DNA of 64,000 nucleotides from Alphaproteobacteria bacterium (GTDB lineage Bacteria > Pseudomonadota > Alphaproteobacteria > Bin95): positions 1,376,001 through 1,440,000 of the forward strand of contig OZ219787.1 in assembly GCA_964291285.2 (NCBI GenBank), given 5' to 3'. Below, in pieces: positions 8,131-25,279 of the stretch. Below the pieces are notes generated by a model. The model made no database searches. It was not told the DNA's origin and saw nothing but the letters and a program-made list of their open reading frames with translations. Made by a program: the position numbers and the translations under genes. Numbering within the stretch: the stretch's first letter is position 1; every line of letters begins with the position of its first letter.

Positions 8131-9241
8131 CGGGCAGGGCAAGGAAGGTCCGCCTGACGGATGCAGGCGTCGCAAGATTGAAGCCCGGCAGCACCGAATA
8201 CATCGTCAGGGACATTCGGGTTGCCGGTCTGGGCGTGCGGGTCCGTCCGTCCGGACATCGCGGTTTCGTGTGGCACGGGACCGTGAACGGCAGGATGGTG
8301 CGGACGACCGTAGGCGCGGTCGCGCTGATGACGGTGGAGGAAGCCCGGGTCGCATGCCGGGCCCTGCTGGACGGCTCGCATCCGCTCTGCGCCGCAGACC
8401 CTGCCGCCCGGACTGCCGTTCCCCTCTTCCGGGATTTCGTCATGGAGGACTGGTTGCCGGCACGCCGGGGTCATTGCAGCCCGGCCTGGGGCGAGCGCGT
8501 GGAGCATGTGATCCGGCACCGGCTTCTGCCCGCCTTCGGGGCGCTTCGCCTCGACCGCATCGCCAGGCCCCATGTCGAGCGCTGGTTCGACGCCATGAGC
8601 CGCAAGACGCCGGGCGCCGCCAACATGACGCTCGCCGTGTTGCGCCAGATCGTGACCGCCGCCAGGGCCGCTGGCCATGTCGGCGCCGATCCTGCCGCAG
8701 GCGTCAGGCCGAACCCGGGCCGGAAGATGACCCGCTTCCTGTCCGCAGAAGAGATCGCCAAGCTTCACCGTACCCTGGACCGGCTGGTGCGGGAACGGCC
8801 CTCGCGCCGCCCGCAGGCCGACATCATCCGCCTGCTGCTGCTGACCGGCTGCCGAAAAAGCGAAATCCTGACACTTCGATGGTCGGAGGTCGATGGCGAC
8901 GTGCTCAGGCTGGCGGAGACCAAGACGGGGCCGCGCACGGTATGGCTGAGCGGGGCGGCGCAGGCCGTGATCGTCCGCCAACCGCGAAACGGAAGCGCCT
9001 TCGTGTTTCCCTCGCCCGGAGACCCGGCAAGGCCGCAATCCGGCAATCTCGGCCTCTGGCTCCTGGCAAGGCGGGAAGCGGGCATCAAGGATGTCCGCCT
9101 GCACGATTTGCGCCATACCGTCGCAAGCCAGGCCGTGGCCCGCGGCGTGCCGCTGTGCGGCGCGACAATCAACTTGAGACTTCCGCGTCAATCAGGATGA
9201 GACGAGGGAAGGCGGCGGCCCGGAACGGAGGGAGGGCGTAG

Positions 9242-11691
<2,450 letters not shown>

Positions 11692-12422
11692 CCCGAGGCC
11701 ACCAGCTCGGCCGAACTGCCCTCACACTCACGGCCCGCGGGGATCGCCTCCGCGGGCCGCTTCATCTCCGGCCCACCGGACCGCCGCGACAATCAAAAAT
11801 CCTCGGAACCTGTCGCGCCGCGACAATCAAAACCAAAAACCGCTTGCAATCCCCGCCGCGCGACACAATCCTCTCCCTCGTCGCTGCCGCCGGGAATCTC
11901 ATCCTGATTGACGCGCGGCTCTCATCCAGATTGTCGCGCTATACCGCTGCCCACCGTCGCCCGGATGCTCGGTCATGCGCAGCCGACCATGACGCTCAGA
12001 TACGCCCATGTCGGGGATCATGAGGTCGAGGACGCCGCAGAGCGCATCGGGACGAGAATCGCGGCGGCCATGACAGCGCGCTGAAGACCCCCTTGCCGAA
12101 CATGCGTGGTCTCCCGGGCTGCGGCTGGCTTGACCATGAGGAGGTGGACCGGGCGGCATCGGAGGTAGAAGGCCGGCTGGATTCGCTCGGGTCTCCGGGT
12201 CCGGAGCGGCCGGGTTTCCGCTCCCTCACGCGGTCGAAGGACCCGTATCTGGCGATCCGTCCGGTTACGGATGAGCGTTCGCGCCTCCCGGCCGATCTGA
12301 GGTCGGAGACCGGGGTCGTGGTGAGGCGCGGGAATGAGTAGAAGATGTCGCCATCGGCCTGCGGCCCTTGTTCCCTCCACCGGCGCTGGCGGTGTTGTGT
12401 CTGCCTTGGCGGTTGGGGCGGT

Positions 12423-12902
12423 TCATCCCCCCCCCCCCCGCGCCAGCGGGGAACGCGCAATGAAGAGCATGAGTTCGGCCAAGGTGGACGGTTCATCCCC
12501 GCGCCAGCGGGGAACGCACTGCCACGGCTGGACCGTCTGCGCCGGCGGACGATACCCGCGAATCCGGGCCTTGGCGTGCCCGTGCATGACCGGATTTTCG
12601 ACGCAGACCCGCGGGATCGGGGCATTCAGGAATTCGGCGAACAGAGCGCAGGCATCCTGAAGCTCGCTCCAGAGATTGCACTCATGCAGCCAGCGCACGC
12701 CGCTGTTGGCCAGCCGCGTGCATGGCGGATGGGCGATCAGCATATCCCACTCGCCGGAGAGCAGGTCGCGCGCATCGCCGACAATGTGACGCTCGGGGCG
12801 GCCCTCTGTCTCCTCCAGGTCGCAGGACCAAGCGTCATGGCCGCGCCGGAGGAAGGCATCGCGGACGGTGCCGGAGTACTCGCAGGCGACCAAGACCCTC
12901 AT
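12423..12902 (-). pseudogene. Phage-like C5 cytosine methyltransferase N-terminal part (about 128 codons) inside the long spacer; frame reads on through repeat and spacer
   Basis: MRVLVACEYSG, AWSCDL, IAHPPCT (motif IV PC), ENP (motif VI); recognisable homology ends at QPWQ, exactly at repeat 12517. Confidence 0.7.
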
Positions 12903-13261
12903 TCCTGGCCGCCGAAGGGCTCATCGTGCTGCATATCCCGCGCATGCATCCAAGTGTCGTGCAGGCACTCCATATAGGGCTCGTCATACGGCTTTTTGGC
13001 CGCCGCAGCGTGTTTGAAATTGTCGTAGACGATGTCGGCCACCGCATTGGCGAGCAACTCTGCGAACTCCTTCCGGTGCAGCGTGGTGCGCCAAGCATAG
13101 TCGGCCTTTGGCGTGTGCTCAATCTCGTAGGGGTTTGTCGGCAAGTAGGCGGCGAGGACGGCGGTCAAGTGGGCTTCCGTGCGCGCCCGCACCAGCAGCA
13201 TGTCCTCATGCTCCCGGTGTTGCACTACAGAGATAAAGCCGAAGGGTGTGTAGAGCCACAT
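12899..13261 (-). CDS. Complete 120-aa phage-like hypothetical protein inside the long spacer
   Basis: MWLYTPFGFISVV...LLVRAR...ADYAWR...YDNFK; GGGAG upstream; ATGA coupling to the next ORF. Confidence 0.7.
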   Translation of the reverse strand: MWLYTPFGFISVVQHREHEDMLLVRARTEAHLTAVLAAYLPTNPYEIEHTPKADYAWRTTLHRKEFAELLANAVADIVYDNFKHAAAAKKPYDEPYMECLHDTWMHARDMQHDEPFGGQE

Positions 13262-13718
13262 GGTGTCATTTCTCCCAGATGTCGTCGGTTCATCCCCGCG
13301 CCAGCGGGGAACGCGGAACCCGGACAAGGACGCCGCCTATCAACGTCGGTTCATCCCCGCACGAGCGGGGAACACTCCTAATGATCTGCTCGTCCTCCGA
13401 TGGCAACCGGTTCATCCCCGCACGAGCGGGGAACACATTGAAAGGTCGAGTGCTAGCCAGCAAATGGCCGGTTCATCCCCGCACGAGCGGGGAACACGGG
13501 GGGAGGAACGCGGCGCTGGGGTTCCCCACCGGTTCATCCCCGCACGAGCGGGGAACACCTTCCATCCTGCCAATTGGTCGACGCCAGTACCGGTTCATCC
13601 CCGCACGAGCGGGGAACACCGTAAGCCTTCGGCGTAGACCGCCTGTCGCCTTTCTCCGGGATCTGGGAGGGTATGCGCTCGGATGTGGGCGCGCGTCGCA
13701 GGTGCCCACCAAGGATAA

Positions 13719-14138
13719 GTGGACACTATGCGGATGTGGGACGCAGCCGAGCATGCAGGCTCCGGGGTCGACGGTCGGGGGCGCCGCCTTCGCCGTCGGT
13801 GGAGCGAGGCGCGCAAGCGCCTGATCGTTGCGGAGAGCTACCAGCCCGGGGTTTCGGTTTCGGTGGTGGCGCGCCGACATGACGTGAACGCGAACCTGGT
13901 CTTCAAGTGGCGGGGCCAGTATCGGGAGCTGGCGCGCGTGGTGGGCGGCTTCGTCCCGGTGGTTGTCTCTTCGACGGAAGGGGCGGAGCCGGCGAAGCTG
14001 CTGCCGGCGCCGGAGGCCGAACCGTCTTCCTCCGGACGGATCGAGATTGCGCTGGCGGACGGCTCGCGCGTGACGGTCGACCGGGATGTGGACGCGGCGG
14101 CGCTGTCGCGGGTTCTCGGGGTTCTGGGGCGGCGATGA
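13719..14138 (+). CDS. tnpA: IS66 accessory HTH protein
   Basis: RRRWSEARKRLIVAES...VARRHDVNANLVFKWR. Confidence 0.9.
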   Translation: MDTMRMWDAAEHAGSGVDGRGRRLRRRWSEARKRLIVAESYQPGVSVSVVARRHDVNANLVFKWRGQYRELARVVGGFVPVVVSSTEGAEPAKLLPAPEAEPSSSGRIEIALADGSRVTVDRDVDAAALSRVLGVLGRR

Positions 14139-14482
14139 TCCCGGTTCCGAGCGGGGCGCGGGTCTGGCTTGCGACGGGCGTGACGGACATGCGTCGCGGG
14201 ATGAACACGCTGGCGCTGCAGGTCCAGCAAGGTCTCGGCCGCGATCCGCATGCGGGCGATCTCTTCATATTCCGCGGACGCAAAGGCGATCTCGTGAAGA
14301 TCCTCTGGACTGACGGGATCGGGACCTCGCTCTACGCCAAGCGTCTGGAGCGTGGCCGGTTCCCCTGGCCGGCTGCTTCGGGCGAGGCGGTGTCGATCAG
14401 CGCGGCGCAGCTTGGCTATTTGCTGGAAGGGATCGACTGGCGGAACCCGGTCCGGACCTGGCGGCCGTCGCGGGCCGGCTGA
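14135..14482 (+). CDS. tnpB: IS66 accessory protein
   Basis: MIPVPSGARVWLATGVTDMRRG...KRLERGRFPWP. Confidence 0.93.
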   Translation: MIPVPSGARVWLATGVTDMRRGMNTLALQVQQGLGRDPHAGDLFIFRGRKGDLVKILWTDGIGTSLYAKRLERGRFPWPAASGEAVSISAAQLGYLLEGIDWRNPVRTWRPSRAG

Positions 14483-14553
14483 CGGGCGGCAAATGGACTC
14501 ATCCGACAGGATTGTCATGGCGGCGGGGCGGTTGTTGTGATTCGCTTCCGGGC

Positions 14554-16200
14554 ATGCCGGACGGATCGGACATCGATGCTCTGAAGGCGGCGCTGGCTGC
14601 GGCGGAAGTCAAGGCGACCGAGGCCGAGGAGCGGGCCGCAGTTGCGGAGGCCGAGGCTTCCAACGCCGTGGCGAAGGTGTCGGACGCGGAGGCGCAGATC
14701 GCCTCCCTGAAGCTGATGATCGAGAAGCTCCGTCACGCGCTCTTCGGCCAACGATCGGAGCGCAAGCAGCGCCTTCTCGACCAGATGGAGCTCCAGCTCG
14801 ACGAGCTCGAGGCGAGCGCTACCGAGGACGAGTTGGCGGCCGAACAGGCGGCTACCGGCACGACGCAGGTCAAGGCGTTCACCCGCCGCCGCCGGTCCGG
14901 GCGCAAGCCGTTCCCCGAACATCTGCCGCGCGAGCGCGTGGTGGTGCCGGCGCCGAGTGCCTGTGAGTGCTGCGGCTCGCAGAAGCTCTCGAAGATCGGC
15001 GAGGACATCACCGAGACGCTGGAGGTCATTCCGCGCCAGTGGAAGGTGATCCAGACGGTGCGCGAGAAGTTCACATGCCGGGACTGCGAGAAGATCAGCC
15101 AGCCGCCGGCGCCGTTCCACCCGACGCCGCGCGGCTGGGCGGGCCCCAACCTGTTGGCGATGATCCTGTTCGAGAAGTATGGGACGCACCAGCCTCTGAA
15201 CCGCCAGCGCGACCGCTATGCGCGCGAGGGCGTCGATCTCAGCCTGTCGACCCTGGCCGACCAGGTGGGCGCCTGCACGGTGGCGCTGAGGCCGCTGCAC
15301 GACCTGATCGCAGACCATGTGCTGGCGGCCGAGCGTCTGCATGGCGACGACACGCCGGTGCCGGTTCTGGCCAGGGGCAAGACCGACACCGGGCGGGCCT
15401 GGGTCTATGTCCGCGACGACAGACCGTTCGGCGGTCCGGACCCGCCGGCGGCCCTGTTCCACTACTCGCGGAACCGCTCGGGCGATCATCCGGTCGAGCA
15501 TTTGCGGAGCTACGCCGGCATCCTGCAGGCCGACGCCTTTGCCGGATATAACCGGCTCTACGAGCCCGCCCGATCGCCGGGGCCCGTGACCGAAGCTGCC
15601 TGCTTCGCCCATGCGAGGCGCAAGTTCCACGAGCTCGCCGACATCGCGGCCGGCAAGAGGCGCGGCAGGAACGCGCCGCCGATCTCGCCGCTGGCGATGG
15701 AAGCCGTGAAGCGGATCGATGCGCTGTTTGACATCGAGCGCGGGATCAACGGCGAGATCGCCGAGCGCCGCCTCGCGGTGCGCCAGGAACTGAGCGCGCC
15801 GGTCCTGGCCGAACTCGAGACCTGGATGAAGGCCGAGCGCGCAAAGCTCTCCCGCCATTCCCCCGTGGCCAAGGCCATGGACTACATGCTCAGGCGATGG
15901 GACCGCTTCGCCCGCTTCCTCGACGATGGGCGCATCTGCCTGTCAAATAATGCCGCTGAGAGGGCGCTCAGAGGTATTGCCCTGGGTCGGAAGTCATGGC
16001 TGTTCGCCGGCTCCGACCGCGGCGGCAGGCGCGCCGCAGCCATGTACACCCTGATCGGCACCGCCAAGCTCAACGATGTCGATCCCCACGCCTGGCTCGC
16101 CGACGTTCTCGGCCGGATCGCGGGAACCCCGCAGAACCGGCTCGACGAACTTCTTCCCTGGAATTGGGTTCCGGAGAAGATGCTCGATCAAGCCGCATAA
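14554..16200 (+). CDS. tnpC: IS66 transposase
   Basis: LFGQRSE, CECCG, HGDDTP, QADAFAGY, CFAHARR, SNNAAER, ELLPWNW. Confidence 0.95.
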   Translation: MPDGSDIDALKAALAAAEVKATEAEERAAVAEAEASNAVAKVSDAEAQIASLKLMIEKLRHALFGQRSERKQRLLDQMELQLDELEASATEDELAAEQAATGTTQVKAFTRRRRSGRKPFPEHLPRERVVVPAPSACECCGSQKLSKIGEDITETLEVIPRQWKVIQTVREKFTCRDCEKISQPPAPFHPTPRGWAGPNLLAMILFEKYGTHQPLNRQRDRYAREGVDLSLSTLADQVGACTVALRPLHDLIADHVLAAERLHGDDTPVPVLARGKTDTGRAWVYVRDDRPFGGPDPPAALFHYSRNRSGDHPVEHLRSYAGILQADAFAGYNRLYEPARSPGPVTEAACFAHARRKFHELADIAAGKRRGRNAPPISPLAMEAVKRIDALFDIERGINGEIAERRLAVRQELSAPVLAELETWMKAERAKLSRHSPVAKAMDYMLRRWDRFARFLDDGRICLSNNAAERALRGIALGRKSWLFAGSDRGGRRAAAMYTLIGTAKLNDVDPHAWLADVLGRIAGTPQNRLDELLPWNWVPEKMLDQAA

Positions 16201-17638
16201 GCCGGCTCACGCTCAAAACCACCCCGCTCCGCACGCACTCGCCGCAAAGAAGGGCCTACCTACCCCTGCGGTCTTCGGCGGACGCATACGGAACACCTCA
16301 CGAATGAGCCTGGCGGCATGGAGATGAGCGGTTCATCCCCGCACGAGCGGGGAACACGTCTCCTCATCGAGCGCCAGGTCGTCGCCGAACGGTTCATCCC
16401 CGCACGAGCGGGGAACACCCTGGCCGTGATGCTGCTGGGCTTGCTCGCGGCGGTTCATCCCCGCACGAGCGGGGAACACTTCTTCCACATGCCTTCAGCA
16501 TGGATTTCCGCCGGTTCATCCCCGCACGAGCGGGGAACACTAGGCTACCTGCGTCTGGGCGATGAGCGCGTTCGGTTCATCCCCGCACGAGCGGGGAACA
16601 CTCGGTCGGATCGGGAATCGACGGCCCGCTGCCCGGTTCATCCCCGCACGAGCGGGGAACACCCCCTGCCCTCGCCCAGCGCAACCATGGCCGCCGGTTC
16701 ATCCCCGCACGAGCGGGGAACACGCGCACGCGACTAGAGGCGGTGTGTGCTCCCCCGGTTCATCCCCGCACGAGCGGGGAACACTATCAGCGCCGCGTGG
16801 AGGTCCAAATTGCGGGCGGTTCATCCCCGCACGAGCGGGGAACACCAGCGCGCCGGCGGGGTAGTATTTCGCCGTGTCGGTTCATCCCCGCACGAGCGGG
16901 GAACACGGGCGCGGCGCGGCTGCGATCCTCAAGGGCGGCGGTTCATCCCCGCACGAGCGGGGAACACCCGTTGCTGAGCGTGACGATCCCGCTCAAGCGC
17001 GGTTCATCCCCGCACGAGCGGGGAACACGCGAGGTCGGCGGCGGTGGTGGTGGTGTCGGTCGGTTCATCCCCGCACGAGCGGGGAACACTCGGCGAGGTA
17101 GGCCGCGTCGCGCTCGGCGCGCGGTTCATCCCCGCACGAGCGGGGAACACCATGGTCTCGCGTTGTCCGCCGACGCCACGATCGGTTCATCCCCGCACGA
17201 GCGGGGAACACGAAAGCGGAGGATGTGGTTTGGGGGCTGGAAGCGGTTCATCCCCGCACGAGCGGGGAACACGTGGTGGCGGTGGTGGCGGTGGCGGTGC
17301 TGCTCGGTTCATCCCCGCACGAGCGGGGAACACGCCGTCAGAACTTTGTAGCCGGCGGCCTCGGCCGGTTCATCCCCGCACGAGCGGGGAACACCTCCAG
17401 CCGATGTTGCGGAAATTGATTTGGGCCGGTTCATCCCCGCACGAGCGGGGAACACCGGCGATAGCGATGCTGCTCATATCTGGTCTCCGGTTCATCCCCG
17501 CACGAGCGGGGAACACGTGTGCTGTCTGGCGTGCTGTGCGTCTGTCTGTGGTTCATCCCCGCACGAGCGGGGAACACTGCGAAAAAAAAGTTTTCAACGA
17601 TTTCAACGACGGTTCATCCCCGCACGAGCGGGGAACAC

Positions 17639-17699
17639 TCTTTCTGGAAGAGCTTGATATGGCAGGCATTTTACGATGTCAAACAGCGCACCGGCCAAA
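17639..17699 (-). promoter_or_regulatory. Short CRISPR leader with IHF-like site
   Basis: AT-richer 61 bp between cas2 stop and first repeat; minus strand TATCAAgctcTTC at 17647-17659, close to WATCAANNNNTTR. Confidence 0.65.
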
Positions 17700-18957
<1,258 letters not shown>

Positions 18958-18961
18958 GCGT

Positions 18962-19666
18962 TCAGAGCCTCCGGATCAACATGAGCCCGCAACCGAAGGC
19001 TTTGGCCGGACCGAATCCGCGCGCGATGGCGGACGGCAACAGATCCGGATCCTGCACCTCCAGAACGCCTTCGAAATCAAGGGAAGAGAACGACAAGGCG
19101 CTTTTGCCGGCACCGCGGTCGATGCGGTGCTGGCGGTAACCCTCGCACAGCAACTCTTCCCCCCGTATCTCGAAACCGGCCTTGCAGCCCTGCCTGGCGA
19201 GCCAGTCGAAGCCCTTTCCCCGGATGGCGGCCATGCGGTGTTCGGCGCGCGAACCGTCCCGCAGCGGGTGAAGCGTATCCATCACGACATCGTGCCGGGG
19301 CGCATGGCGCTTGCCCGGCTCCTTTGCCTTGCGGACCGTCGGGTTGGCCCGCAGCGAGAACCGCAGCCGGTCGCCTGCCGCCAGGACGGGGGCGAAGGTT
19401 TTGGGTTCGTCGATCTCGAACAAGCCATGACGGTCTTCAGGAGGCCGCGCCGAAAGCACAAGAAAGGCGCCGTCATCCATCCGTCGCCAGAGAAAATCGC
19501 GGCGGCGGTCCGGCCCGTCTGCAAACAAGGACCAGACCAGGCGCCGGTCCACATCGACGGAACGGTGGCTGCCGGGTCCGGCGTCCTGTTGCAGCAGGGG
19601 CATCAGGGCCTTGACGGACGCAGCGCTTCCGAGCCGGACACGGGACAGCCAGCAGGCGTCAGTCAT
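18962..19666 (-). CDS. cas6e: Cas6e/CasE crRNA endonuclease
   Basis: FSLRANPT; glycine-rich loop GFGPAKAFGCGLM. Confidence 0.95.
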   Translation of the reverse strand: MTDACWLSRVRLGSAASVKALMPLLQQDAGPGSHRSVDVDRRLVWSLFADGPDRRRDFLWRRMDDGAFLVLSARPPEDRHGLFEIDEPKTFAPVLAAGDRLRFSLRANPTVRKAKEPGKRHAPRHDVVMDTLHPLRDGSRAEHRMAAIRGKGFDWLARQGCKAGFEIRGEELLCEGYRQHRIDRGAGKSALSFSSLDFEGVLEVQDPDLLPSAIARGFGPAKAFGCGLMLIRRL

Positions 19667-20427
19667 TCCCCATCCCCCAGGTCGATCACCACCCGCTCTT
19701 CCCGGTCTCTAAACTGCCATCGTGTGCGGCTTCCGATGCCGTCGCGCCGACGTTCGAGGAAACCGCCCGCCGGCGCTCCCGGGGCATCGGCATCAAAAGC
19801 GATCTCCCGCCCGGCGGGCAAGCCGCGGCGAAGCCGTTCCAACGCCCATGCTTCCAACGCGCCGGGCCCTTCGCCGCCGTTTTCGGCGGCAACTGCCGGG
19901 CGCCGAAGCGCAAGGGCGTCCATCAAATTGGCCGTTTCGACGATTTCCGGGTCGAGGGGCAGTCCGAGCGGAGCCGATTTGCGGCCCAGGTAGAGCGTGA
20001 AACGGGGCCGGCGCAGCGCTGCGGCGATCTCATCCAGATCGACCGCGCCGCCGGAGCGCAACCAGAGTGCGGCCGTGAAACAGGCATCCGAACGCCATTC
20101 CCGGCTGGAAAGCACCGTGTTGATCCGTTCGGCCTCCAGTTCCTCACGGCGAGTCTCAAAGCTCTGGCCCCGCCGCGCCGCGGGAGTCTGAGCCGTATGG
20201 TAATCGATGAAAGGGCGGCCGGGCGCGTCTGTCCTGACGGCGTAATGCAACCCCTCTTCCAGCGCACGATGGGCATCATCGTCGCTCCGTTCGATCCCCA
20301 GCGCGGCGGCAACCAGCCCGAGGACGGCGGAGCGTCCCGGCCGCGACCAGCCCATGCGTCGCTCCCCGATGGCAATCTCGCCCAGGGAACACATCGGCGC
20401 GTAGAGCGTGAAGAGCAGGAACCGCAT
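19663..20427 (-). CDS. cas5e: Cas5e/CasD
   Basis: MRFLLFTLYAPMCSLG, PGRSAVLGLVAAALG, DYHT, LYLGRKS. Confidence 0.95.
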   Translation of the reverse strand: MRFLLFTLYAPMCSLGEIAIGERRMGWSRPGRSAVLGLVAAALGIERSDDDAHRALEEGLHYAVRTDAPGRPFIDYHTAQTPAARRGQSFETRREELEAERINTVLSSREWRSDACFTAALWLRSGGAVDLDEIAAALRRPRFTLYLGRKSAPLGLPLDPEIVETANLMDALALRRPAVAAENGGEGPGALEAWALERLRRGLPAGREIAFDADAPGAPAGGFLERRRDGIGSRTRWQFRDREERVVIDLGDGE

Positions 20428-20431
20428 GGCG

Positions 20432-21484
20432 TCAGGCCAGGGCGAAATCGATGAATTCCGCGAGGGTCCCTTCGCCTTTCGCAACGTCCACAGACAGGCG
20501 ATCCGCGGCGCAGGGCCCGTAGGCCCGGTCGAGTTTGTCCCTGAACTCCTCCAGCGCATGCACCGAAGCCTCGCCCTGGTCAGCGCCGGAGACGGGCTTC
20601 AGGAATGCGGCGGCGAGACTGCGCGGCTGGGCATTTCCCTTTTCTGCTAGTGCGTAGAAGGCGCGTGCGTGGCTGGCGAAGCTTGCCTGCTTGCCGCGCG
20701 GTGCCACTGTCGCGGCGGCCTCGGCCAGCGCGGCGACGCTTGCGTTGCCCACGACCCGGTCCCCGCCGAGGTTTTCCAGCAGCAATCCCCGGTCCACGCA
20801 GAGATAGAGGTAGAATACGCCCGCGCCGAACTCCTGGACGCCGACGAATCCCGCTCCGGCGTCTTCCGGCTCGTCACGCGACTTGAGGTCGTCCACGGCG
20901 GTATAGTAGTCGTCTTCCGCGATCGCGCGGTGGGTGGTGATGGCGTGCGCCACTTGCACCGCGGCCTCGCGGTTGAATTTGGGGTCATCCGCCAGCATCC
21001 GGCCGAACATGGCGATATCCGCGGCCGTATCGGTTCGGCGCAGTACGTCCTCGGGTTCAGGTGCTGCCGGTTCTTCGCCAGCGAGTGCGCGATCCGCCAG
21101 CGCGAACGCTTCCGCGCGCTCCTCCGGCGAAACGAAGGCCAGTTGTTCGATGAAGGCCGGGTTCCGGTCCGTCTCCGGCTTCAGCTTTCCGAAGACATCG
21201 GCAATTTTCCGGGCGGCCGCGAGGGCTTCCTGTTCGCCTATGCCGCCCTCGATCAGGTGCCGGTGCAGATCCTCACCGAGCCGCTGCGTGCGTCTGGCGA
21301 GATGGCCGTCAAGCTTGCTCTGGAATACATCGGAGGTCCGCCAGGCGCGCTTCAGGCTTTGCGAGGAGATGCGCAGGCGCGGGGCGCCGCCGAACAGGAC
21401 GCTTTTCGGCCGGCCGGTATCGTCGCGGTTCAGGTTGGACGGGCCGAAGGCCGTCAGCAGGTGCAATTGCAGGAAATCGCTCAT
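20432..21484 (-). CDS. cas7e: Cas7e/CasC
   Basis: SNLNRDDTGRPK, RISSQSLKRAWR, DIAMFGRM, QVAHAITTH, DYYTAVDD. Confidence 0.97.
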   Translation of the reverse strand: MSDFLQLHLLTAFGPSNLNRDDTGRPKSVLFGGAPRLRISSQSLKRAWRTSDVFQSKLDGHLARRTQRLGEDLHRHLIEGGIGEQEALAAARKIADVFGKLKPETDRNPAFIEQLAFVSPEERAEAFALADRALAGEEPAAPEPEDVLRRTDTAADIAMFGRMLADDPKFNREAAVQVAHAITTHRAIAEDDYYTAVDDLKSRDEPEDAGAGFVGVQEFGAGVFYLYLCVDRGLLLENLGGDRVVGNASVAALAEAAATVAPRGKQASFASHARAFYALAEKGNAQPRSLAAAFLKPVSGADQGEASVHALEEFRDKLDRAYGPCAADRLSVDVAKGEGTLAEFIDFALA

Positions 21485-22023
21485 GCAGCGGAGTCTCCCT
21501 GTGGAGCGGTTGAAGAGTTGGATGGCGCGGCGCGACCCACACCGTAATAGTTGAAGATCCAGTGCTTCCTTACGCCGTCGCCCCAATAGAGGACGGATCG
21601 GGACAAGTCCCGCACGTTGACTGTCCCGCCGGCCAGACGCACGAGGCGGCGCATCGCATCCATGAGCTCATCGTTACGCTCGATCTGCAGCAGGCGACGG
21701 AAGCGACCTTCGGACATGACCGCTTCCGCATCGTCGAGCGACCTGCGACCTACGGCGCGGGCGACGGGCCGGTCCTCATCATCCCGGACCCACGCGAGAA
21801 TGCCGGCAAGCGCGGCCACCCGGTCCTTGTTGTCAAAATGGGGCAAGCGCTGGATCAGGCGCAAAGTAGCCGTCTCCCGCATGGCTTCGAGCGGCGTTCC
21901 AGCCCGGCGCAAATGTGCAAGCGCCGCTTTCTGCGAACCGGTCTGCACGCCGTTCTCCGGGTTCAAATCCCGCCACCATGCAGCGGCGATGGAACCGGCC
22001 CCTTTGGGAATCGAATCGGTCAT
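21481..22023 (-). CDS. casB: Cse2/CasB small subunit
   Basis: ALAHLRRA, MSEGRFRRLL, LYWG...W...YY; position between cas8e and cas7. Confidence 0.9.
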   Translation of the reverse strand: MTDSIPKGAGSIAAAWWRDLNPENGVQTGSQKAALAHLRRAGTPLEAMRETATLRLIQRLPHFDNKDRVAALAGILAWVRDDEDRPVARAVGRRSLDDAEAVMSEGRFRRLLQIERNDELMDAMRRLVRLAGGTVNVRDLSRSVLYWGDGVRKHWIFNYYGVGRAAPSNSSTAPQGDSAA

Positions 22024-22670
22024 GCGGCCTCCTGCCTGTTGACGGCGCCGACAGGTTCGGGCGCCGGGATGCCGAGTTCGCCGAACAGCGCCCTGCCGTC
22101 CTTGCCCCGCCCGCCGAGTGCAAGATGCAGATAGAAGCGCGCCCGGACATGGCGTTCCATGCTCCGGTTCTCCAGTGCCTCGCCGGGTGCGACTTCGTCG
22201 AAAAGGCGGAGCGCGGGCGCTTCCATCCGCTTCGCCCAAGCAAGGCGCGCTTCCAAACTCGGATCGTCGGGATCTGCGCCGCTGCGCGTGCGAGTTGCCG
22301 TTTGGACGTCGAAGAATGCCTTGCGGAAAGGTGCCTCGGTCTCCCGGAAGAAGCATTCCGCAATAAAGCCGTAGTCGCCGGCTGCATCGGCAGGCCGGTC
22401 GTAGAGAGCTGACTTCACCGCGCGAACGAGCAGCCGCGAAACCGTTTCCGCGCCCCTGACTGCCTGATGAATGAAGCTCTCCAGACACTCGCGCGTTTCC
22501 TCTTCCGCGAGCAGCGGTAGAGGCCATTCCCCCTCGATCCATGCGCGCGCCTTCATATTGTCCATGTCGTAACCGAAGGCGGTGAACCGGGGCTTTTCGT
22601 CCATCGCGAACTGTCCGCGTTCGGCTATAACATGGCGGATAACCCGTGCGGGCTGCCGCAACCCGTCGGC
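22020..22670 (-). pseudogene. casA: C-terminal fragment of Cse1/CasA (Cas8e), truncated by ISAs1
   Basis: AFGYDMDNMKARAW motif; only about 216 codons remain before the IS end at 22671. Confidence 0.85.
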
Positions 22671-22732
22671 CAGGGAAAATTTTTAGTCGAACCGCGGGCT
22701 TTGTCTGAGTGATGTCGGTCTGGCTGCCGGTG

Positions 22733-23144
22733 TTTGCCGTGAAAATTGTTGGGGATCGGGCGCAAAAAAAACCTCCCCGCCAAAGCACTGCTCCCGAGGC
22801 GTCCGATACTCGCCATCTGCGGCGCCCGTCTTGCGGACCCTGACCGGTAGGCAACCCCGTAAAAGCCCGAAGTCCCGCCCGCGCGGCCGGCACCTGTTTT
22901 CATGATACGGGGTGGCCGACCCGCCCGACAATGAAGGTTTTGCCGTGAAAATTGTTGGGGATCGGGCGCAAAAAAAACCTCCCCGCCAAAGCACTGCTCC
23001 CGAGGCGTCCGATACTCGCCATCTGCGGCGCCCGTCTTGCGGACCCTGACCGGTAGGCAACCCCGTAAAAGCCCGAAGTCCCGCCCGCGCGGCCGGCACC
23101 TGTTTTCATGATACGGGGTGGCCGACCCGCCCGACAATGAAGGT
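22733..23144. repeat. Tandem duplication of a 206-bp unit
   Basis: 22733-22938 and 22939-23144 appear identical on reading. Confidence 0.92.
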
Positions 23145-23285
23145 TTTGGGGAACCCCAGACGTTTCTGGCCGCCGTCATGGTGGTTTCTTGATGCCGCGG
23201 TCCAGTGTTTTCGTCCTCGACGGGCGCAGTTGTTTTGCTGCGCCGTTCTTCGGCCCGAGCCTGTATTGCGGTGGGGGGTGGGGTA

Positions 23286-25082
23286 TCAGCCTCTGGGCGC
23301 GATCATAATCGCGTCGAGGGCCTCTTGGGCGCGGGCGGCGTAGTGCCGGTTGGCCTCGGGTACATATCGGAAGCGTCCGTCGCAGCGCACGATAGCGATG
23401 GCCGCGTTGCTCAAGCAGGCCAGATTTCCGGGCAGGTGGCGCACATATGCCCGGCAACGGTCTTCGTCATAGGTGAAGTCACGCACATAGTGCACACGGT
23501 TCTCAATGTGCCAGTGGTTGCGCACCAGATCGAGAAGCTCCTTGGGGCCGGCTCGCTCTGCGCCAAGCGACGTCAGGCTCCAGGTGACCTCGATGCTGCG
23601 CTTGCCGGTTTTGAGCATCTTGCGCTCGCGTTCCATGCGCATTGCCTGGCGGCGCCCGTGAAGGTGGGCGTAGCCGTCCCACTCGGCAGCGCAGAGGTCG
23701 ACGACGGCGCAGCGTCGGCGCTCAATGCGACCATGGCCCTTGTCGACGGTTTCGTGCCAGGGCGCATCGCTGAAGTCGATCGCCTTGAGGTCTTCGAGGA
23801 TGGTCTGCTGGTTGCCCTTCACCGCGCTGACCACGTAGTCGGCACGGCGTTCGAGCAGGCAACGCGCGGTCTCGTGCTGGGCGTGCATCGCATCGATGGT
23901 GACGATCCGGCCTGTGAGGTCGAGACCGCTGGAGAGTTCGCGCACGGCCGGGATTTCGTTGCTTTTGGAGCTGACTTCGACCTGCCCGAGGACCACGCCG
24001 GTGTCATGCGCCACCGCAGCGACCATCCTCCTGCGCCGGTCTTCGCTCTGCTTCGAGGCACCGCGCAAATCCTTTCCGTCCATGGCCACAGGCGCGTGCG
24101 CACTGCTGTGCTGTCCGGCCCACTGGCCGATGGCATTGTCCAGGGTCTGTGGCGGCAGGGCGGCGAGGATGTTGTGGAAGGTGGTGACCGCCGGCGGCGT
24201 GTAGCACTGCCTGGATGGGCTCCAGAAGGCGCCCACCGCCTTGAGTTGCTTCTGGGAGAGCAGGGCGGCGAACTGGGCGAAGGCGTTCACACCCCGGTAT
24301 CCGGCAAGCCGGGCGGCAACGGCCAGCGTCAGAATGGTGGTGAGCGCATAGCGCTTGCCCCGGGCATGGCGGTATTCGGGCACCTCGCCCAAACACTCGA
24401 ACAGGCTGCGCAGCCGGGGCGCCGCCATCGGCTCGGTGTGCTGCTCAGCGTTCCAGTCTGCCGGTATCTCGGGATGGCTCAGCGCCTCGGGGGCGCCGTG
24501 TGTCAGTTCGAACACGAAGACCTCCTTGGGCTGGCCGTGGTGACGCCAGCGCGCCACCCCTCCGGGCTCGCGGGCAAAGCCGCGCGTCAGACCCAAAGAG
24601 CGCCAGTTGGCCGCGCGGTAGCAGGTGCCGGCGAAGCGCGAGACGTCCACAAACGTCTCCGCCACAACAGCCGGATAGCCATGCGCCGCCCGCAGGTCCT
24701 GCGACAGCCGCCGCACGCTCAGCCCCAGCACCCGCGAGGCAAGGTTGGGAACCCGCTCAGGCGTCAGGATGACAAAGCGCGAGTTGTTGGCAACCAGATG
24801 CAGGCGACGGAACTGCTGCTCCGCCGACCACCCGATCCAGCGGTCCCGCGCTCCCACCTTGAACGCTCCAGGCTGCCAGCCAACCAGGGCAAGCCAGGCC
24901 TCGCCATGAACCGCGACATGGCGCAGACCCTTGCCGATGATGCCGTGGAACCGCAGATAGTGGTGCGCCGCTACCAAATCGTCCCAGCGCCGGTGCTCCC
25001 GTGCCCCCCAGGTCGGGCGCACCGTGACCGCGCGAAGATCAACCCAAACACCCGCAAACAGAAACCTCGCCATGACCGGCAC
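23286..25082 (-). CDS. ISAs1 transposase fused to an N-terminal DUF4338 domain
   Basis: HHYL...RDRWIGW...NLASRVL...ETFVD...YRAANW followed by AMDGKDLRG, KSNEIP, TIDAMH, GHGRIERR, RNHWHIEN. Confidence 0.92.
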   Translation of the reverse strand: MPVMARFLFAGVWVDLRAVTVRPTWGAREHRRWDDLVAAHHYLRFHGIIGKGLRHVAVHGEAWLALVGWQPGAFKVGARDRWIGWSAEQQFRRLHLVANNSRFVILTPERVPNLASRVLGLSVRRLSQDLRAAHGYPAVVAETFVDVSRFAGTCYRAANWRSLGLTRGFAREPGGVARWRHHGQPKEVFVFELTHGAPEALSHPEIPADWNAEQHTEPMAAPRLRSLFECLGEVPEYRHARGKRYALTTILTLAVAARLAGYRGVNAFAQFAALLSQKQLKAVGAFWSPSRQCYTPPAVTTFHNILAALPPQTLDNAIGQWAGQHSSAHAPVAMDGKDLRGASKQSEDRRRRMVAAVAHDTGVVLGQVEVSSKSNEIPAVRELSSGLDLTGRIVTIDAMHAQHETARCLLERRADYVVSAVKGNQQTILEDLKAIDFSDAPWHETVDKGHGRIERRRCAVVDLCAAEWDGYAHLHGRRQAMRMERERKMLKTGKRSIEVTWSLTSLGAERAGPKELLDLVRNHWHIENRVHYVRDFTYDEDRCRAYVRHLPGNLACLSNAAIAIVRCDGRFRYVPEANRHYAARAQEALDAIMIAPRG

Positions 25083-25279
25083 ACTGCCATATCAAGAAAA
25101 AAATAGCCACCCCGGACCCCACCTCAACATGGCCCAAAGGCAGACAATTAATTCGCCCTGCCCGGCGCGCCCCGTTTGTTGACAGCCCGGAGCGGTCTGC
25201 CTATCGTCGATCCGGGACCCCGCCGCCGGCGCCCGCCAACGGCCCGCGCCGGCGGCGCCCCTTGTGGAGGCCTGTCCCC

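Follow-up and report, generated by a model that had tools for sequence, protein, structure and literature searches.

How does a CRISPR array come to hold, in the place of one of its spacers, a piece of DNA long enough to encode a complete gene, and could such a gene be expressed from the array? This question is raised by a 64,000-nucleotide (nt) stretch of DNA from an Alphaproteobacteria bacterium (assembly GCA_964291285.2, contig OZ219787.1, positions 1,376,001 to 1,440,000), hereafter called the window, whose type I-E array harbors a 768-base pair (bp) insert in the slot of spacer 28. An original prediction, made from the letters of the window, had proposed that phage genes captured in this slot are co-oriented with the precursor CRISPR RNA (pre-crRNA) and could be translated from it. 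The insert is a spacer, but a gene-sized one. With a single example it is the anatomy alone that is established, and expression from the array is a low-probability extension of this finding.

The array lies on the minus strand, follows cas2e and is the only one in the genome. It is composed of 30 repeats and 29 spacers, with 29-nt repeats and a 61-nt period (Table 1). All 29 exact repeats are on the minus strand, and the repeat pattern that gives 29 matches in the window gave 0 in 100 shuffles. Exactly 32 nt were measured for 28 of the 29 spacers and 768 nt for spacer 28; a 768-bp interval among 28 spacers of 32 nt is far beyond chance. The insert is present as a single copy in the 6.1-megabase genome, its G+C content is 0.633 versus 0.68 for the genome, and it is absent from 36 other genomes of the family, one of which gave a 45-nt match (E 9e-4). 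Its interior contains neither degenerate repeats nor terminal inverted repeats, Pfam and PHROG searches matched no integrase or transposase in it, and no duplication was seen other than the CRISPR repeat itself. Judged as a spacer, the insert has junctions at the repeat borders and a foreign origin, but not the length of ~32-33 nt.

Table 1. Positions in the window of the insert, the array that contains it and the neighbouring genes and elements (ORF, open reading frame; aa, amino acids; IS, insertion sequence)
Feature	Coordinates	Strand	Remarks
Insert, 768 bp, spacer 28 of 29	12518..13285	(-)	Between two identical 29-nt repeats, both ends exactly at the repeat borders
Probable 3' end of an upstream phage ORF, 18 nt	13266..13283	(-)	Frame translation DIWEK, TGA at 13268-13266
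GGGAG, Shine-Dalgarno-like	13272..13276	(-)	10 nt before the ATG at 13261
P0001, complete 120-aa ORF	12899..13261	(-)	Large uncharacterised phage-associated family
DNA methyltransferase, 5' part, 128 codons + 1 nt	12518..12902	(-)	ATG overlaps the P0001 stop (ATGA); cut at the repeat
Variant repeat, leader-proximal side of the insert	13286..13314	(-)	GCGTTCCCCGCTGGCGCGGGGATGAACCG
Variant repeat, leader-distal side of the insert	12489..12517	(-)	Identical to 13314-13286
Last spacer, 32 nt	12457..12488	(-)	
Terminal variant repeat, 38 nt	12419..12456	(-)	G4 run grown to G13
Five canonical repeats and spacers 23-27 (32 nt each)	13315..13619	(-)	High ends 13619, 13558, 13497, 13436, 13375
Leader-proximal array part, 22 canonical 29-nt repeats and 21 spacers of 32 nt	16329..17638	(-)	Repeat GTGTTCCCCGCTCGTGCGGGGATGAACCG
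Leader, 61 nt	17639..17699	(-)	Spans cas2e stop to first repeat
cas2e, cas1e, cas6e, cas5e, cas7e, cse2	17700..22042	(-)	NCBIfam equivalogs, all above cut-offs
cse1 C-terminal remnant	22206..22664	(-)	Pfam profile positions 303-449 of 450; cut by ISAs1-family element
IS66-family element, 2,669 bp, tnpA/tnpB/tnpC	13621..16289	(+)	Pfam HTH_Tnp_1, TnpB_IS66, DDE_Tnp_IS66

The three repeats at the distal end of the array, two of which flank the insert, are variants with the loop TGGC (UGGC in RNA) versus TCGT (UCGU) in the canonical repeat and with C for T at position 2. The insert-flanking variants share the 7-bp stem with tetraloop into which the canonical repeat folds, the predicted Cas6e hairpin, with -14.2 versus -15.0 kcal/mol. 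Neither the 36 other genomes of the family nor the species-genome collection contained the exact variant repeat. The repeat loops form a series, which consists of TGGC in the 3 distal repeats here, TCGC in two genomes of the same genus (G008 and G013) and TCGT in 27 repeats here.

The insert was also found in assembled sequencing runs. A Logan contig of run X1 (1,182 nt) covers positions 12194-13374 with 0 other letters and one extra homopolymer base, while a contig of run X2 (973 nt) covers 12401-13374 with one substitution, at 13268; each of them bridges both insert junctions. Run X2 comes from a second sample within the same study, and X1 may be the sample from which the genome originates. 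The contigs of a third run, X3, give no cover over 12403-13206, and contigs cannot show absence. Since bridging contigs come from two runs, the insert is not an assembly artefact and this candidate explanation was rejected. A run of decayed repeat-spacer units was rejected as well, because the interior holds no degenerate repeats and because the insert with one repeat amounts to 797/61 = 13.07 array periods, which is not a whole multiple.

What does the insert encode? Read on the minus strand, it contains the 18-nt tail that is probably the end of an upstream gene, then GGGAG, the 120-aa ORF (P0001), the ATGA overlap and the start of a DNA methyltransferase gene. The 3' end of the host 16S ribosomal RNA reads ...CACCTCCTT. 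The intact frame, the conserved residues and the plausible ribosome-binding site of P0001 are those of a coding gene. No Pfam or PHROG family was matched by P0001, and ten longer relatives are likewise without a Pfam domain, yet the protein is far from alone: an exhaustive search retrieved 3,281 cluster representatives at E <= 0.001, among them 289 at E <= 1e-10, with the closest relatives 47-50% identical and P0001 full-length against its relatives. A word-based search gave 3 relatives at 37-39% identity among 12 candidates. In an alignment of 60 sequences P0001 retains all 13 invariant columns (M1, W2, S11, V13, R25, R27, D54, Y55, R58, N81, F82, K83 and W104, strictly conserved in the family) and 2 near-invariant ones.

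The original prediction had called for a structure prediction of the 120-aa protein, and this yielded a confident AlphaFold model, with a predicted local distance difference test score (pLDDT) of 95.2 and a predicted template modelling score (pTM) of 0.86, to which no solved fold was matched. Searched against the PDB, the sequence matched nothing below E 0.1 and the model had 0 Foldseek matches at E <= 0.001, and VIA-align found 0 of 48,161 chains at Z >= 5. In BFVD two unnamed viral proteins match the model with a template modelling (TM) score of 0.77-0.78. Eight records of cultured phages encode relatives of P0001, all labelled hypothetical, and its Atlas neighbours are without exception named 'hypothetical protein'. 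One phage neighbourhood holds particle-associated proteins and is uninformative, and no relative was found in the fetched flanks of 80 viral methyltransferase loci or of locus L002. Having no Pfam or PHROG entry, the P0001 family is a candidate new domain family in phages.

The second gene of the insert can be named and is incomplete. Residues 1-128 of the methyltransferase match phrog_757 'DNA methyltransferase' with E 4e-37 over profile positions 15-147 of 247, and in IMG/VR 587 of the 595 stretches that match the pattern encode relatives, the best 80 of which are 49-69% identical. In all 80 of these viral loci the relatives are 190-250 aa long (median 209). In nucleotide comparison (blastn) with cultured phages only the methyltransferase part was matched, by 11 records with ~64-80% identity over <=51% of the query. 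Among 14 aligned viral relatives the conserved ..Q(S/T)(V/I)QPW(Q/W) is followed by F or Y and then by G in 14 of 14, whereas the methyltransferase of the insert (..QTVQPWQ) turns into the repeat one base past the Q codon. Since homology extends up to the last full codon before the repeat, the distal junction lies at the repeat border and leaves no remnant of an older spacer. By comparison with its relatives the gene is cut at ~61% of its length (about 40% is missing), exactly at the repeat border. The fragment is without the conserved C-terminal block, no full-length domain is present, and from its sequence it cannot be active.

It had also been noticed that the truncated frame stays open beyond the insert, and this observation holds: from 12902 the frame reads the repeat (12517-12489) as CVPRWRGDEP, crosses the 32-nt last spacer and stops in the last repeat with TGA at 12425-12423, which gives the fused frame a tail of 31 residues from repeat and spacer. 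The G run of the terminal repeat, which sets this stop, has one more base in the X1 contig and is thus unstable in length or hard to sequence.

The proposal that the captured genes are phage DNA is borne out by the phrog_757 match and by the relatives encoded in IMG/VR. Since both genes are of phage type and tightly packed, the operon-like arrangement argues for one contiguous piece of phage DNA.

How did this piece enter the array? The reading that we prefer, and to which we give a probability of roughly 55%, is that the adaptation machinery acquired an over-length spacer, whose phage genes are passive and persist as a silent or weakly expressed relic without selected function. Cas1-Cas2 would have integrated an untrimmed prespacer, ~24 times the proper length, at the repeat that then stood next to the leader, the integration would have duplicated that repeat, as in each acquisition, and 27 ordinary 32-nt spacers would have been added afterwards. 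The phage's own ribosome-binding site and the ATGA overlap would have been brought in passively, and the genes would have the orientation of the pre-crRNA since one of the two had to occur. Both junctions are base-exact at the repeat borders and the flanking repeats are identical, which is the signature of Cas1-Cas2, where two borders are attacked and the repeat is duplicated; random breakage would rarely give base-exact repeat borders at both ends. Additionally, the later repeats are all canonical and a TCGC intermediate occurs in two genomes of the same genus, which fits distal repeats that are ancestral and an event that is old. We infer Cas1-Cas2 as the agent, and likewise the polarity of IS66 and the lack of function.

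Several points weigh against this over-length acquisition. In type I-E systems the integrase uses a strict ruler to measure its prespacers, and no report of in vivo integration at this length was found in our literature search, which covered few subscription journals and no supplements. Searches with the 120-aa protein in IMG/VR, the GTDB species genomes and the JGI metagenomes (in the metagenomes also by junction DNA pattern) brought up no relative and did not recover the source phage and, with it, the protospacer-adjacent motif (PAM) at the leader-proximal border, next to ACGACATC... Nor were convincing protospacers of the other spacers, which would show the system's own PAM, found in the genome, the viral loci or the phage records, where the matches obtained were to other arrays or to low-complexity sequence and were rejected. 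P0001 is fully intact (all invariant positions, pLDDT 95) although it sits in the second-oldest spacer, a state that would fit selection for expression too. Finally, the consensus scan showed no intrinsic terminator-like site in IS66, so that read-through is possible.

One would argue that the integrase need not have misbehaved at all. Two 32-nt spacers taken from the same strand of one phage, ~704 bp apart in the phage, may once have been neighbours, and a double crossover or gene conversion, with the spacers acting as homology arms for infecting phage DNA, may have put the phage sequence from between the two arms in the place of the repeat that separated them. This would account for the exact borders and for the contiguous phage DNA without integrase misbehaviour. 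In type I-E systems primed adaptation preferentially takes several spacers from a single strand of the same target, and recombination between spacers and their phage targets has reportedly been seen in staphylococci. However, arms of 32 bp are short for RecA, and a two-spacer strain was not seen among the run contigs, which cannot show absence. The PAM speaks weakly against this route as well: TCG precedes the last 32 nt of the insert and the nearest AAG, the type I-E PAM of Escherichia coli, lies 52 nt from the end, though the PAM of this system may differ. We consider recombination between two spacers unlikely, and less likely than the uptake of an over-length prespacer.

Whether the array could express its cargo depends on the surroundings of the insert. 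In the leader we read by eye TTGACA (17682-17677) and, after 17 nt, TATCAA (17659-17654), a pair that may serve as a promoter and is the only promoter-like sequence that we saw; the consensus promoter scan, in which the second hexamer must have T as its sixth base, leaves this site unlisted. In the leader-proximal part of the array A stands for G as the last base of the second repeat (17549-17609 region), and the newest spacer, rich in AT and with a T8 run, differs from the rest of the genome with its 68% G+C. Spacers 6 and 10 (17273-17304; 17029-17060) consist of low-complexity ACC/GCC repeats; their many weak matches fall in the host genome and in genes for phage tails and capsids. Closer to the insert, repeat 23 is interrupted by the IS66-family element, flanked by an 8-bp target duplication GGTGTTCC at 16297-16290 and 13620-13613. 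Further copies of IS66 are present in the genome, and a near-identical one on contig C1 is itself interrupted.

The six cas genes next to the leader, cas2e ending at 17700, are intact and on the strand of the array, but the effector is incomplete. Positions 1-303 of cse1 lie on contig C2 (in the region 533987-537495), adjoining another copy of the ISAs1-family element that splits the gene here (window 22206-25160) and that occurs in 12 copies in the genome. The only match to the cas3 core above cut-off is also on C2, ~80 kb from the displaced cse1 piece. The split of cse1 beside ISAs1 copies suggests an IS-mediated rearrangement of the cas operon. Thus the locus holds no full Cascade set with cas3 (cse1 is split and cas3_core lies on C2); because cse1 is split an intact Cascade cannot form, and because an IS has split it the locus is decaying. 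Other mobile DNA is found around the array. An IS21-family element of 2,788 bp (9156-11943), with several near-identical copies, lies ~480 bp past the array end, and between it and the array a 219-bp element (12114-12331) is 88% identical to three other places, one of which lies on C2 immediately upstream of the displaced part of cse1. Tandem ~207-bp copies (22730-23150) stand at one end of the ISAs1-family element, with related copies across all five contigs.

The anatomy on which the original prediction was built can be recovered in full. Both ORFs lie on the minus strand, as do the six cas genes, the leader and the 29 exact repeats; GGGAG does precede the ATG of P0001; and the unit of about 797 nt is right in its arithmetic (768 + 29). 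If transcription started at the leader, Cas6e could cut the resulting RNA to 797 nt, and this product could be translated, so an RNA that is both CRISPR RNA (crRNA) and messenger RNA (mRNA) is anatomically possible. The last 8 nt of all repeats have a further property: the predicted crRNA 5' handle would start with AUG (AUGAACCG) if Cas6e cuts as it does in E. coli, the cut position on which the predicted 8-nt handle is based. In the giant unit the AUG of the handle opens a short frame only.

In its strongest form the idea states that Cas6e frees an RNA of 797 nt that begins with an 8-nt 5' handle and ends in a 3' hairpin, that this RNA serves as mRNA and that the 120-aa protein is made; it also covers a possible benefit to the host and a possible very long Cas7 filament. 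The co-orientation, the GGGAG at a distance of 10 nt from the ATG and the fact that the gene is intact and retains every conserved residue of its family are in its favour, as are intact cas6e and cas7e and flanking repeats that fold as the canonical repeat. The second sample has the insert with one base change only, IS66 is without a terminator-like site, and, as described in two papers, Cascade takes lengthened spacers with extra Cas7 subunits (PMC5009729, PMC5159557). Against this stands that the orientation could be chance, as the original prediction itself had cautioned for a single example, being a coin flip or 1-in-2 event, and that at the base composition of the genome 32 codons in a row stay open with P = 0.50; the co-orientation and the open frame are no more than chance would give. 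A polymerase coming from the leader must pass through 21 spacers and then, in antisense, through the 2.7 kb of IS66, whose own genes point away from the insert. Consensus scans found 0 promoter-like sites in 12300-14000, which takes in the stretch from IS66 to the insert, 0 in 13500-17800 and 0 terminator-like sites in IS66, and such scans are weak in a 68% G+C genome. Additionally, cse1 is split, the enzyme encoded by the second ORF is truncated and would end in a junk tail, and Cas5 and Cas7 assembling on the 5' handle and spacer would compete with ribosomes. The step of expression itself, that the array makes a phage protein, is hypothetical, and we regard the complete model as improbable. 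With 2.7 kb of antisense IS66 in the way and a broken cse1, the most probable state of the insert is that of a relic, silent or weakly expressed and without selected function.

A quite improbable origin is that of a remnant of a prophage or another element, which would have entered without Cas1-Cas2, with the repeat as attachment site or by illegitimate recombination, and would then have been reduced by deletions. The literature documents the integration of a phage into CRISPR repeats (bioRxiv 10.1101/2020.10.09.333658) and describes Tn7-like elements that target CRISPR repeats (PMC11837452), and the locus here is rich in mobile elements (IS66, IS21, ISAs1-family). However, the insert carries no integrase, transposase, terminal inverted repeat or attachment-site-like duplication beyond the repeats, and 0 IMG/VR contigs carry this repeat. 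The methyltransferase gene is cut in mid-frame at the repeat border, where an attachment site is not expected, and the deletions must have ended base-exact at both borders, for which we estimate ~(3/61)^2 if the ends were random. The weakest explanation, a chimeric assembly or ~13 decayed repeat-spacer units taken for genes, is hardly credible: the one-base difference between the window and the X1 contig in the terminal-repeat homopolymer does point to sequencing noise in the region, but contigs of two runs span both junctions, the ORFs have strong homology to phage proteins, and the insert has neither residual repeats nor a length that is a multiple of 61.

In type I-E systems a molecular ruler in Cas1-Cas2 is held to fix the length of spacers. 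A natural spacer of 24 times this length, whose repeat borders are base-exact and which encloses a complete gene, would mean either that the integrase acts on gene-sized DNA in vivo or that spacers serve as recombination arms which draw phage DNA into arrays, and both alternatives bear on the evolution of arrays and on the proposed descent of adaptation from casposons. It could further be that the adaptation machinery occasionally captures gene-sized DNA and that a captured, co-oriented phage gene is expressed from the array as a Cas6e-cut, end-protected RNA, a generalization which, judged by the single locus at hand, we treat as a long shot. If such units were expressed, phage genes would have in arrays an entry point that has so far gone unnoticed; the capture would offer a route for the take-over of a phage gene by its host and a natural echo of a casposon-like past of Cas1, and the cargo here would be an intact 120-aa gene of an unknown, widespread phage family.

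Gene-sized or unusually long CRISPR spacers were not found in our literature search, which covered few subscription journals, and the insert can be placed by comparison with systems that it resembles in part. Like an ordinary type I-E spacer, it is foreign DNA lying exactly between two identical full repeats on the strand of the array, and the array stands beside cas1e and cas2e. Unlike an ordinary spacer, it measures 768 nt versus 32 nt and holds a whole gene with its ribosome-binding site; a published survey gives 31-33 nt for type I-E spacers (PMC5159557). The same paper and a second one describe Cascade with spacers lengthened in the laboratory, which builds longer Cas7 backbones (PMC5009729; the +6 construct in PMC5159557). 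The likeness lies in the idea that the length of the spacer sets the number of Cas7 subunits, whereas these constructs, in what is described there, add a few nt (+6, PMC5159557), the insert is 736 nt longer than an ordinary spacer and cse1 is broken here. Lab-lengthened spacers therefore say nothing about 768 nt, and no known case nears this scale.

Phage DNA flanked by repeats in an array is also seen in Streptococcus pyogenes, where a phage sits in type II-A repeats and prophage integration affects the transcription of the array (bioRxiv 10.1101/2020.10.09.333658). That case, as presented there, concerns a whole prophage with the repeat as its attachment site; here we have 768 bp, a cut gene and no integrase. 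Insertions of IS elements into arrays are exemplified by the same array, with IS66 in repeat 23 and its 8-bp target duplication, and the 768-bp insert differs from them in being without IS marks. The remaining comparison is that with casposons, the Cas1-driven transposons. The insert is without a casposase gene or terminal inverted repeats and is a random piece of a phage operon instead of a mobile unit, but it would share with casposons that an integrase of the Cas1 type puts gene-sized DNA in place and duplicates the target, which here would be the CRISPR repeat.

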